The notes below the pieces were generated by a model. It searched no databases and had not been told where the DNA came from. It saw only the letters and a list, made by a program, of their open reading frames with translations. A DNA stretch of 21,131 bases from Candidatus Micrarchaeia archaeon (lineage in GTDB: Archaea > Micrarchaeota > Micrarchaeia > Anstonellales > J096): positions 1-21,131 of the forward strand of contig JBGQMB010000017.1 of the NCBI GenBank assembly GCA_041500405.1, written 5' to 3'. The translations under genes were made by a program, and so were the position numbers. Positions 15,069-17,031 of the stretch are shown here, one piece after another (the first letter of the stretch is position 1; the number at the start of each line of letters is the position of its first letter).

Positions 15069-15257
15069 GTTTTCACCATTTTTTGTGTTTTATCGTCTAT
15101 CCTTGTAATTAGTTCCTGCTTCCCCTATTTAAAAACGTTTTCTTTACCGACGGAGGATTTCGAACACAAACGTTTATCAGACACCACACTTCCCCTATTC
15201 TGTATTCATGCAAAGGTTTAAATACATTTAGTGCATACATTCACTTGGGTTGAAAAG
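15069..15257. promoter_or_regulatory. Divergent promoter region between ftsZ and the RHH-PIN pair, with repeated motifs
   Basis: Minus-strand TTTTTAAATA (15135-15126) and plus-strand TTTAAATA (15217-15224). Repeats: cttcccctatt twice, aaacgttt twice, atacatt twice. Confidence 0.55.
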
Positions 15258-15470
15258 ATGGTCAAAGTTATGACAATAAGGGACGAGGTTTACCACAAGC
15301 TGAACAAGATAAGGCTCAGCCGGGGCTTCAGCTTCAGCGAAACGATAGAGCACCTCCTTGAATCATACAACAGGTACGGGAGGGAGGCCGGCATAGGCGA
15401 GCTTGCGGGCGCGCTGCCAAAATCAAAGCTCAACAAAAGGAACGTGAAGAGGGTGGTCGGCGATGTCTAA
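15258..15470 (+). CDS. Ribbon-helix-helix antitoxin-like protein (archaeal VapB/DUF217-like)
   Basis: MVKVMTIRDEVYHKLNKIRLSRGFSFSETIEHLL matches the KTITIxDEVYxxLxxxK...SFSxxIxxLL pattern. It overlaps the downstream PIN gene. The ATG at 15258 is preferred over the GTG at 15231. Confidence 0.8.
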   Translation: MVKVMTIRDEVYHKLNKIRLSRGFSFSETIEHLLESYNRYGREAGIGELAGALPKSKLNKRNVKRVVGDV

Positions 15471-15834
15471 CACAATCTGCGTAGACTTTGACATGATGCT
15501 GTACTATCTGGTCGGCGACAAGTCCCACGTCGACAAGCTGAACATGTATATCAAGACGGAGGAGATGGCAGTGACCGCGCTTACGCTTGCGGACCTTGCC
15601 ATATCGATGGAGGATGAGGACCTCCCAAAAAAGATTTCAGCCAACTTCCGCATATTGCCATTCGACGAGCGCGCGGCGCTCAAGGCAAAGGAGATTTATC
15701 TGCCCATGCAGGAGGCAGGCAATGAGAAAGTCAAAATAGCGTACAACTCCGCCATCGTCATAACGAATGATGCGTTCTTCCTTGTGAAGGACAAGAACAA
15801 GTATAAGGGAGTGCCGGGCCTCAAGTTCGTCTGA
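15463..15834 (+). CDS. PIN-domain protein (VapC-like), degenerate active site
   Basis: ICVDFDMML, TALTLADL, FRILPFDERAA and LVKDKNKYKGVPGLK follow the VapC layout. It sits directly downstream of an RHH gene. Confidence 0.75.
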   Translation: MSNTICVDFDMMLYYLVGDKSHVDKLNMYIKTEEMAVTALTLADLAISMEDEDLPKKISANFRILPFDERAALKAKEIYLPMQEAGNEKVKIAYNSAIVITNDAFFLVKDKNKYKGVPGLKFV

Positions 15835-15840
15835 AAAAAG

Positions 15841-15913
15841 TGAGCCCGCCCGGGATTGAACCGGGGATCCCCGCTGTGTGAGAGCGGTGTCTTAACCACT
15901 CGACTACGGGCTC
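15841..15913 (-). tRNA. tRNA-Val(CAC), intronless, CCA not encoded
   Basis: The minus strand folds as acceptor GAGCCCG/CGGGCTC plus discriminator A, D-arm GTC-GAGTGGTTAA-GAC, anticodon arm CCGCT-CTCACAC-AGCGG and T-arm CCCGG-TTCAATC-CCGGG. It is followed by CTTTTTT. Confidence 0.95.
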
Positions 15914-15926
15914 CTGTATCCGTCTG

Positions 15927-15970
15927 TGAGCCTGTAGGGCCTTTGGCGGACCAAAGCGGACTACGGGCTC
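15927..15970 (-). repeat. Hairpin upstream of the tRNA containing a 12-nt copy of the tRNA 5' end
   Basis: gactacgggctc occurs at 15902-15913 (tRNA 5' end) and again at 15959-15970. A near-complement, gagcctgtag, lies at 15928-15937. An inner stem ctttgg/ccaaag spans 15941-15956. Confidence 0.85.
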
Positions 15971-16005
15971 GTCTGAAACCGCAGATTATACACTATCGGC
16001 ATTCG

Positions 16006-16014
16006 TTTTAAAAA
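16006..16014. promoter_or_regulatory. Putative TATA box, possibly bidirectional (kae1 and tRNA)
   Basis: ttttaaaaa lies about 25 nt before the kae1 ATG at 16039 and reads TTTTTAAAA on the minus strand toward the tRNA. Confidence 0.45.
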
Positions 16015-16038
16015 TCTTGCCGGAACTTCAATCTCCAT

Positions 16039-17031
16039 ATGAGGATTCTTGGCATAGAGTCTACCGCGCACACGCTCGGCATCGGCGTCTTCGATGGCAG
16101 AAAGGGCGTGCTTTCCAACGCGCTGTTCCGCTACCAGCCTTCGGACGGCGGAATCCTCCCCAGAGATGCGGCGGATTCCCATAGCCGGCATTTCGCATCC
16201 GTGCTTTCGCAGTCGCTTTCAGACGCTTGCCTTTCGCTTTCGGACATCGACGCTGTCGCTGTTGCGCAGGGGCCAGGCATCGGAGCGCCCTTGAGTTTCG
16301 GCGTAAGCATGGCCCGTTTTCTATCGTCATACCTGGGCGTTCCCATAATCGGCGTCAACCACCCTTATGCGCACATCAAGATAGCGGAGCATTTCGGGAA
16401 AGCGAAAAGGCCGATTATAATATATGTGAGCGGAGGCAACACCCAAATCCTTTTTGAGAACAGGGAGGGATTTTACGACGTGCTTGGCGAAACCCTTGAT
16501 ATGGGGCTTGGAAACCTGTTCGACGTTTTCCTTAGGGAAGCGGGGGAAAGGGAAGCGTACGGCTCCAAGCTTGAGGCAATGGCAAAAGGGGGAAAGTACA
16601 TCAGGATGCCCTATGTCGTCAAGGGGATGAACGTCTCATATTCAGGCCTTTTCACGCACGCAAAAAGGATGATTGGAAAGCACTTGCTGAAGGACATCGC
16701 ATATTCATTGATGGAAACCTCCCTTGCAATGACGGTTGAGATTGCGGAAAGGGCGTTCCACATGAAGGATGCGCAGTGCTTCATGGCATGCGGCGGGGTT
16801 GCGCAGAACACGCGGCTGAAGGAAATGCTCAGCCTGGTCGCAAAGGAGAACAGCGCGCGCTGGTTTGTCGCTCCAAACGAGTACAACGGCGACAACGGCG
16901 CCATGATTGCCTATGCAGGATTTTTGATGCAGAAAAAATACGGCTTCTTTGACTTGAAAGACGTTACGCCTTACCCCGATTACCGGATTGACAGGATGAA
17001 GCCGCTCCTTGAAAAGATGGGAAAGGTCTAG
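16039..17031 (+). CDS. kae1: tRNA N6-threonylcarbamoyltransferase Kae1 (TsaD family, KEOPS), stand-alone
   Basis: ILGIESTAHT, GGILPRDAADSH, QGPG, GVNHPYAHI, YVSGGNTQ, GETLDMGLGN, GGVAQN and DNGAMIA. No fused Bud32 kinase. Confidence 0.93.
   Translation: MRILGIESTAHTLGIGVFDGRKGVLSNALFRYQPSDGGILPRDAADSHSRHFASVLSQSLSDACLSLSDIDAVAVAQGPGIGAPLSFGVSMARFLSSYLGVPIIGVNHPYAHIKIAEHFGKAKRPIIIYVSGGNTQILFENREGFYDVLGETLDMGLGNLFDVFLREAGEREAYGSKLEAMAKGGKYIRMPYVVKGMNVSYSGLFTHAKRMIGKHLLKDIAYSLMETSLAMTVEIAERAFHMKDAQCFMACGGVAQNTRLKEMLSLVAKENSARWFVAPNEYNGDNGAMIAYAGFLMQKKYGFFDLKDVTPYPDYRIDRMKPLLEKMGKV

Follow-up and report, generated by a model that had tools for sequence, protein, structure and literature searches.

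The window analysed here is the 21,131-nt contig JBGQMB010000017.1 (C17) of a 916-kb, 60-contig assembly (GCA_041500405.1, referred to below as G000) from a Candidatus Micrarchaeia archaeon. Its tRNA-Val(CAC) gene, on the minus strand, is preceded in the leader by a 44-nt hairpin unit that begins with a repeat of the first 12 nt of the tRNA. This hairpin is a cut-down copy of the acceptor stem of its own tRNA; it is due neither to chance nor to an error of assembly, and it belongs to a family of such units in front of several tRNA genes of the same genus. The reading favoured here, to which a probability of about 0.5 is given, is that the unit is a duplicative, tRNA-derived stub in the leader, which would fold on itself, shield the tRNA from the additional 5' strand and be removed by RNase P, and which would have no regulatory job.

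Read in the sense of the tRNA, positions 15970 to 15927 of the minus strand are GAGCCCGTAG-TCCG-CTTTGG-TCCG-CCAAAG-GCC-CTACAGGCTC-A, and tRNA-Val(CAC) begins at 15913 with GAGCCCGTAGTC. The parts of the unit and the gene that follows it are these:

15959..15970, minus strand: 5' copy, GAGCCCGTAGTC, the same as tRNA positions 1-12 (15913-15902)
15961..15970, minus strand: 5' arm of the outer stem, pairing with 15928-15937 in 9 of 10 pairs, with a C6.A mismatch
15941..15956, minus strand: inner filler hairpin, CTTTGG-TCCG-CCAAAG, 6 base pairs (bp) and a UCCG loop, varying in relatives with compensatory changes
15928..15937, minus strand: 3' arm of the outer stem, CTACAGGCTC, the exact reverse complement of GAGCCTGTAG, which is the tRNA 5' end in present-day G002 (a second species of the genus)
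15927, minus strand: A at a discriminator-like position, found as A in 6 of the 8 aligned Val units
15914..15926, minus strand: spacer of 13 nt, 2-17 nt long and unalignable among relatives
15841..15913, minus strand: intact tRNA-Val(CAC), acceptor GAGCCCG/CGGGCTC, discriminator A, CCA not encoded

The first-pass annotation of this DNA, made from the letters alone, had reported the same string with its 12-nt self-copy, an outer stem pairing in 9 of 10 positions, an inner stem with a UCCG loop and a GGCTC-A end, and all of these match the sequence. The 44-nt unit folds at -21.3 kcal/mol, compared to -10.8 +/- 2.4 kcal/mol in shuffled sequences (z -4.40; none of 200 shuffles was as stable), and in its acceptor-like stem 6 of the 7 acceptor pairs are formed, with the A added at the 3' side. 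The 12-nt direct repeat of the tRNA 5' end flanks an insert of 45 nt that has no open reading frame (ORF) inside. ARAGORN finds a single tRNA in the window, at 15840-15913, and the Rfam tRNA model scores 65.5 bits at 15841-15913. There are three Rfam matches at E<=1 and all lie over the tRNA, namely the tRNA model itself, Plastid-ycf2 (37.1 bits) and Tymo_tRNA-like (17.9 bits), the latter two below their gathering scores; over 15927-15970 there is no match at this threshold, either to the tRNA model or to a curated cis-regulatory leader family.

The element was also found in contigs of three other public metagenome runs, with 0-2 differences, every one of them outside the element. X2 record 1 covers 15600-16200 with two differences, at 16145 and 16164; X3 record 5 covers 15600-16144 with none; X4 record 17 covers 15885-16200. 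Three independent assemblies therefore confirm the element, and the assembly artefact that the first-pass annotation had considered is set aside. A single 151-nt X2 contig of low depth (2.8) links 15913 to 15996 through 84 other letters, which replace 15914-15995; this points to a co-occurring strain with a different leader.

The relatives compared were the other two species of this Micrarchaeota genus, G001 and G002 (the three assemblies are 77-92% complete and have 44, 42 and 42 tRNA genes in G000, G001 and G002, respectively), together with two metagenome contigs from relatives, L092 and L116, each with one unit. A blastn-short scan for tRNA fragments was swamped by chance 12-mers, and an anchored prefix census was used in its place. 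In this census an 11-nt tRNA prefix recurs, with at most one mismatch, no more than 250 nt upstream of the tRNA gene; the 250 nt downstream and the reverse complement of the upstream region were used as controls under the same rule. Matches were found upstream of 7 of 44 genes in G000, 6 of 42 in G001 and 2 of 42 in G002, and the controls gave 0, 1 and 0. Two units with two mismatches, at Gly-GCC of G001 and Val-CAC of G002, were missed by the rule and spotted by eye; a match at Leu-TAG of G000, which has one mismatch, lies upstream of the TATA box and has no hairpin, is doubtful and was left out of the unit count. The working counts are accordingly 6 units among the 44 genes of G000, 7 among the 42 of G001 and 3 among the 42 of G002. 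Exact 12-nt self-copies in G000 stand before all three Val genes and Gly-GCC (4 of the 44 tRNAs).

A unit is present at every Val gene found in the three species, to which L092 and L116 add two more. The other hosts are Arg-TCG (G000 and G001), Ile-GAT and Lys-TTT (both G001) and Gly-GCC/TCC (G000 and G001). The outcome is the opposite of an absence in relatives and at other tRNAs, which the first-pass annotation had named as grounds for refutation: the unit occurs in congeners and at other tRNA genes alike.

The units share one plan. Each lies between the promoter and the tRNA and is made up of a 5' copy (11-15 nt), a filler hairpin and an arm that complements the copy; an A usually follows, and then a spacer of 2-17 nt. 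The insert between the repeats, 45 nt at tRNA-Val(CAC), is 19-127 nt elsewhere and is always free of genes. At Val-TAC of G000 (C14) the outer stem is unchanged and the inner stem is longer, CTTTGGCG-TTTG-CGCCAAAG, while Val-GAC of G000 (C10) has kept a perfect 12-mer and lost the 3' half. At Ile-GAT of G001 the units are in tandem (2 x 69 nt). The Gly units are a variant, in which the 12-mer is followed by terminator-like hairpins with T/A tracts and by a T-arm-like hairpin, and sometimes by a second promoter that, where present, lies directly before the tRNA; their 3' arm still pairs with the 12-mer. On another contig of G000 (C34:8574-8771) two tandem 116-nt Gly-type units, each with 12-mer, hairpins and second promoter, run up to the contig end, which probably falls in the Gly-type repeat.

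Among the genera searched, the family appears to be confined to one genus. A model built from the Val units (R1) gave strong matches in G000-G002 only when run on 151 genomes of the order, and in G000 and G001 only when run on a 151-genome sample of the phylum (without G002). All R1 matches in the three species are at units before tRNA genes; weak matches were seen in G063 (E 0.02), where the 3-kb locus holds no tRNA, and in G067 (E 0.08). An 8-nt self-copy within 200 nt upstream was found at none of 16 Val genes from other genera. The inner-stem motifs are confined to these units, bar one unrelated coding-like site, and two other exact Val 12-mers in G000 (C3:15137, minus strand, and C20:16094, plus strand) lie in coding-like sequence and are taken as chance. 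Of two pattern scans of metagenomes, the first gave no match and the second 55 loci, which are two true units and 53 chance co-occurrences in coding-like or unrelated sequence. A pattern search of genome contigs gave 31 loci; four are in the two congeners, and the others, bacterial apart from one Methanoculleus record, are probably tandem tRNA-Val genes.

The fold is shared. Nine units (eight Val units and the Arg unit of G000) all take up one kind of two-tier hairpin, with energies from -20 to -31 kcal/mol and z values between -1.5 and -8.7, and the ninth Val unit, at Val-GAC of G002, gives a similar fold at -19.5 kcal/mol. The stem between 5' copy and 3' arm closes in the Gly, Lys, Arg and Ile units too, with G1 unpaired in the Arg, Ile and Lys units. 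When eight Val units are aligned with MAFFT, 83% of the cells pair, and both sides have changed in 5 of 18 pairs. The covariation score is 0.216, compared to 0.137 in shuffles (none of 500 reaches 0.216) and 0.012-0.097 in controls with slid partners; as it draws on few and related sequences, with the rows from G002 out of register in the inner stem, this covariation is to be taken as support and not as proof. Loops and spacers vary freely among the units, and in G002 merely 2-3 nt separate the unit from +1.

A further possibility is that the units are small-RNA genes. Here a stable minihelix mimicking the acceptor end of tRNA-Val would be freed by RNase P and tRNase Z, and would act on, or as a decoy for, the CCA-adding enzyme, ValRS or tRNA-targeting toxins. 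RNase P and CCA-adding enzymes both accept minihelices as substrates, and a valine minihelix is chargeable in vitro. Consistent with such a role, the Val units have a 7-bp acceptor-like stem, carry the A in 6 of 8 cases and are kept at all Val genes found. Acceptor-T-arm minihelices and tRNA-like structures also have a 7-bp acceptor-like stem with an unpaired base on its 3' side. The units, however, have no T-arm or elbow; they have an internal loop and a filler hairpin instead, and their stem contains mismatches (C6.A here, two in L092). Two of the 8 Val units have G or T at the discriminator position, the Arg, Ile and Lys units do not pair G1, and the tRNA model does not match the unit. A small-RNA gene is regarded as improbable. 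The acceptor-minihelix mimic named in the first-pass annotation holds as a description of the Val units, with their 7-bp acceptor-like stem and A; the Arg, Ile and Lys units differ in their unpaired G1.

Remnants of further tRNA parts are found within the units. The 3' part of the Arg unit looks like its tRNA's T-stem 3' strand joined to the acceptor strand, the Val-CAC unit of G002 retains a T-loop-like GGTCAAT, and the Gly units retain GGGTTCAAA and GGCAGC-GCA. Judged from their sequences, the units appear to be copies of tRNA genes in which the middle has been replaced by a hairpin. The Val 3' arm is complementary to positions 8-10 too, where the tRNA's own 3' strand does not pair, which points to fold-back copying or else to selection for a longer stem.

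Units at different tRNA genes are 76-82% identical. The Arg-TCG unit of G000 and the Ile-GAT unit of G001 agree in 60 of 73 aligned columns, and within G001 the Arg unit agrees with the Lys unit in 47 of 62 columns and with the Ile unit in 53 of 70. At the same time the arms suit each host, being GGCCTG/CAGGCC at Lys, GGCCCG/CGGGCC at Arg and GGCTCG/CGAGCC at Ile. The Ile tRNA's own 3' strand has a G opposite T5; therefore the arm of the Ile unit is compensated and was not copied from the tRNA. No unit was found at the orthologous Lys-TTT promoter in G000 and G002, at the orthologous Ile-GAT promoter in G000 or at the syntenic Gly-GCC locus in G002, nor is there one at the Ile-GAT and Arg-TCG genes of G002, where orthology of the promoters is not established. 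Presence and absence at orthologous promoters, together with the tandem copies, thus show that the genus has seen gains or losses of units and that units can multiply in tandem.

The family probably arose from tRNA gene copies and appears to have been copied among tRNA genes with similar 5' ends. The most likely route of such spread would be a homology-driven copy-paste in recombinational repair, with the two direct copies of the 5' end as anchors: a broken tRNA 5' end would invade the upstream copy at a unit-bearing gene, and synthesis would copy through the unit and then re-anneal at the downstream copy. The 5' copy tracks lineage-specific changes of its own tRNA (G2 in Val-TAC of G001, T6 in G002, A7 in Val-GAC of G002), with one or two differences from it in L116 (2 of 12), Val-CAC of G002, Val-GAC of G001 and two Gly units. 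This tracking is most simply explained by local gene conversion between the two direct copies.

Alternatively, the unit could be the scar of a site-specific integration, in which the 5' fragment upstream would be attL and the rebuilt tRNA attR, the body of the element having been lost or the unit itself being a miniature, non-autonomous derivative. Direct repeats of the tRNA 5' end do flank an insert whose presence differs between species, and the Gly units start with terminator-like hairpins and have their own second promoter before the rebuilt tRNA, much like the end of an element. There is precedent in Caldiarchaeum, where a 5' fragment of tRNA-Thr lies 1.8 kb upstream of tRNA-Thr with a recombinase gene between them, and the authors state that elements typically attach at the 5' or 3' terminus of a tRNA (PMC3293823); from Thermococcaceae, too, partial tRNA genes that stem from integrated elements are described (PMC9897764). 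These fragments share with the units a direct repeat of a tRNA end beside an intact tRNA and a presence that varies among close relatives. They differ in having inserts of kilobases, as against 45 nt here (19-127 nt elsewhere) and never with genes, and in that the units have a complementary arm, a covarying hairpin and homologues at different tRNA genes with adapted arms.

No recombinase lies in the unit, and no tyrosine recombinase of family PF00589, not even of the Xer type, was detected in the three genus genomes (77-92% complete, so that an unbinned element is possible); the Y1 transposase (PF01797) is represented in these three by a 31-residue fragment in G001. Integration, moreover, leaves both the host-compensated complementary arm and the covariation of the stem unexplained. 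It is judged unlikely, if the least so of the accounts that set another origin or function against the stub. As to the scar of duplication or integration put forward in the first-pass annotation, duplication emerges as the best-supported origin, given a family at several tRNA genes, and integration as less likely. Quasi-palindrome correction and small dispersed repeats of the REP (repetitive extragenic palindromic) or MITE (miniature inverted-repeat transposable element) kind also resemble the units, in that arms change together and small gene-less units are repeated; unlike REP and MITE repeats, the units stand only at the 5' ends of tRNA genes, show no target-site duplication beyond the tRNA prefix and have no associated transposase.

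What the unit does now depends on its being transcribed, and the position of the promoter is informative here:

16006..16014, minus strand: TATA-like box TTTTTAAAA, about 41-43 nt before the first base of the unit

This is the sole TATA-like box upstream of the unit, and by inspection there is no TATA-like hexamer between 15970 and 15914. Since it lies about 25 nt before the start of the divergent kae1/tsaD gene (16039), it may serve either gene or both. Plain tRNA genes of G000 mostly have a TATA-like hexamer 30-35 nt before +1, and at the Gly and Arg-TCG genes of G000 the box is at this plain-gene distance from the unit, not from the tRNA. In L092 a TATA-like box ends 25 nt upstream of the unit. 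From these positions the unit would be co-transcribed with its tRNA.

On the favoured reading, the cassette, made first, would close on itself and so keep the extra 5' strand and its complement off the real acceptor strands; RNase P would then cut at the true +1, and the cassette would be discarded with the leader. Its pairing would be kept either since an open copy would misfold the pre-tRNA or since quasi-palindromes correct themselves. The competing structure is a strand-swapped fold, in which the true 3' strand is engaged by the 5' copy and the true 5' strand by the 3' arm. Seven valid precursors were compared, that of G001 Val-GAC, with a 72-nt tRNA, being excluded; in the minimum free energy (MFE) fold of the tRNA-Val(CAC) precursor the upstream copy is paired with the tRNA 3' end. 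As the swapped fold is competitive in silico, an unpaired copy would be harmful, and this would select for the closed hairpin, which is itself favoured because the unit precedes the tRNA in the order of transcription.

Several points weigh against a stub that is merely tolerated. By nearest-neighbour energies the strand-swapped fold is at or below the energy of closed hairpin plus tRNA in 5 of the 7 precursors. A unit has been kept at each Val gene found, across three species and two metagenome relatives, which may speak for more than a tolerated scar. Val-GAC of G000 has a perfect 12-mer and no 3' arm, so an unsequestered copy is tolerated at least there. Tracking of the tRNA by the 5' copy equally fits selection for pairing with the true 3' strand, and hence a functional interplay. 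All nine Val units fold better as antisense RNA, by 0.8-5.7 kcal/mol, which gives no support for selection on the sense RNA. Finally, the copy-paste mechanism of spread is one that we infer.

The same refolding is the basis of another explanation, which is that the unit acts as a regulatory leader switch, alternating between the closed hairpin, with which the tRNA folds and RNase P has access, and the strand-swapped fold, and in this way gating the maturation of tRNA-Val. In addition to the swapped fold being of equal or lower energy in those 5 of 7 precursors and being the MFE fold at tRNA-Val(CAC), the 5' copy follows the acceptor even at a cost to the decoy stem (C6.A in G000/G001, G2.U in Val-TAC of G001), and the G002 unit is merely 2-3 nt from +1. 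Control of RNase P cleavage by designed leader helices is reported in PMC7897497, and the designed RNase P riboswitches of PMC7897497 and PMC8925977 resemble the units in having a structured 5' leader next to +1 that could hide or expose the cleavage site. These designs are, however, synthetic and controlled by ligand, whereas the units are without a ligand-binding element. The units yielded neither a ligand pocket nor a conserved loop nor an Rfam match, and their loops and spacers vary freely; the 5' copy of L116 differs from its tRNA at 2 of 12 positions, Val-GAC of G000 is without the 3' arm, and the order of transcription favours the closed form. Furthermore, the terminator-like hairpins and second promoter of the Gly units make a switch mechanism common to all units unlikely. 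A switch is considered quite improbable: the refolding proposed in the first-pass annotation is possible, being predicted in silico in 5 of 7 precursors.

An archaeal-type RNase P RNA of about 218 nt is found in all three species, at 53-68 bits (the Rfam gathering score is 84) and E values of 1.9e-14 to 5e-19. The archaeal RNase P RNA model also matches in genera g2, g3 and g7 of the same family, and gave no match in 10 of 10 genomes of the sister genera g4, g5 and g6 (G005-G007 and G009-G015); a divergent RNA, a protein-only enzyme or leaderless tRNAs may lie behind this.

The MFE fold, with its upstream copy paired to the tRNA 3' end, would also fit a disrupted tRNA gene, with the upstream 12-mer as its true 5' exon and, in the 57 nt that reach to the second copy, an intron or split junction that the splicing endonuclease would remove; wherever within the repeat these 57 nt were cut out, the mature tRNA would be the same. 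In archaea, split, permuted and multi-intron tRNA genes likewise have a short 5' tRNA piece at promoter distance that is followed by structured non-tRNA sequence. At the units, unlike in such genes, the downstream tRNA is complete and uninterrupted (ARAGORN; Rfam 65.5 bits), no bulge-helix-bulge (BHB) is present at the repeat, and there is nothing to join. A disrupted gene is scarcely credible. For both cuts of a BHB to fall within the repeat, positions p-5 to p-2 must form a self-complementary 4-mer. A BHB intron or split gene was considered on this basis and rejected: reasoning from the sequence, with no BHB program, none of the nine 4-mers of GAGCCCGTAGTC is self-complementary as the motif would need. 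In the Ile-type 15-mer AGCT would serve, but the helices on either side of it do not pair.

The genes around tRNA-Val are ftsZ, a VapB-type antitoxin ORF, a 123-aa ORF, kae1/tsaD, pelota and a rhomboid protease. Two of these converge on the 3' end of the tRNA:

15231..15470, plus strand: VapB-type antitoxin ORF (PF02697, E 7.4e-10)
15463..15834, plus strand: 123-aa ORF overlapping the VapB-type ORF, with no Pfam family at E<=0.001

The label of PIN protein that the latter had received at first is unconfirmed, there being no Pfam match at E<=0.001. In G000 the cassette of promoter, unit and tRNA and the gene partnering vapB are convergent; in G002 they are co-directional with that gene upstream, the cassette being inverted between the species.

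With such neighbours the element could work on the plus strand or as DNA, either as a cruciform or by insulating kae1 from, or terminating, read-through of the convergent vapB pair. The antisense preference of the nine Val units (0.8-5.7 kcal/mol in 9 of 9) would fit this, as would the C.A mismatch, which becomes G.U on that strand. A scan of 15700-16100, however, found its one terminator-like site away from the element, at 15756-15735, and nothing of the kind within it on either strand. The geometry is not kept, since the vapB-partner gene of G002 lies upstream and co-directional, and units of this architecture also stand at Arg, Ile, Lys and Gly loci with other surroundings. As regards strand, the Gly units are much more stable in sense, and the Arg, Ile and Lys units fold about equally on both; the preference is mixed, and the palindrome may have an effect at the level of DNA. 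As a whole, a plus-strand or DNA element is very improbable. The insulator against antisense read-through that the first-pass annotation had suggested is not borne out, with no hairpin plus T-run at the element on either strand and with units also at loci that have no convergent gene.

No description of such leader units was found in the open-access full-text literature. From the known tRNA fragments the units differ in being tiny and gene-less, in lying in the leader, in forming a hairpin with host-matched arms and in being common to different tRNA genes. Partial tRNA copies beside tRNA genes are usually taken for dead traces left by integrated plasmids or viruses. Here the trace measures 44-55 nt, in a leader that would be transcribed, and it is a covarying hairpin, fitted to its host and gained at new tRNA genes in one genus of small-genome DPANN archaea. 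A neutral explanation of a unit that is recurrent, structured and apparently mobile is plausible. If the unit is a mere tolerated scar, it offers a natural case of a duplicated acceptor strand neutralised by its local complement, and a caution for the annotation of tRNAs. A more active version may be put forward tentatively as the less likely one, namely that this is a gene-less element living solely in tRNA leaders that folds into an imitation of the acceptor stem and spreads to tRNA genes of similar 5' end by using the duplicated 5' end as a recombination handle, and that may tune tRNA maturation or yield a minihelix RNA. Were it active, it would be the natural counterpart of the RNase P leader switches made by design, or else a selfish unit of a new class that targets tRNAs, and it would also bear on how archaeal tRNA genes become disrupted.

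Other observations concern tRNA genes more widely. Just downstream of intact tRNA genes, G000 has two 3' tRNA fragments: 23 nt at C7:4066-4088 are identical to positions 49-71 of Gly-GCC and lie 32 nt after the intact Gly-GCC gene, and 23 nt at C2:28115-28137 are identical to positions 54-76 of Arg-CCG and lie 67 nt from Arg-GCG. Many tRNA genes of G000 (for example C3:33843, C12:9756 and C56:2375) are followed downstream by palindromic hairpins with T and A tracts, of the type CCTTTTCTT-nnn-AAGAAAAGG; these resemble two-way terminators, and the same type of hairpin forms the core of the Gly units. In a genome of another family (G039), locus L019 has a tRNA-like 5' piece, GGGCCCGCAGTTGAGTGGTTATCC..., some 70-110 nt upstream of tRNA-Val(TAC) at 1498-1572, with no self-copy by the rule used. 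G000 (C7:28381-28485), G001 and G002 each have, beside two CAT tRNAs, a call for an intron-containing tRNA-Ile with anticodon TAT.

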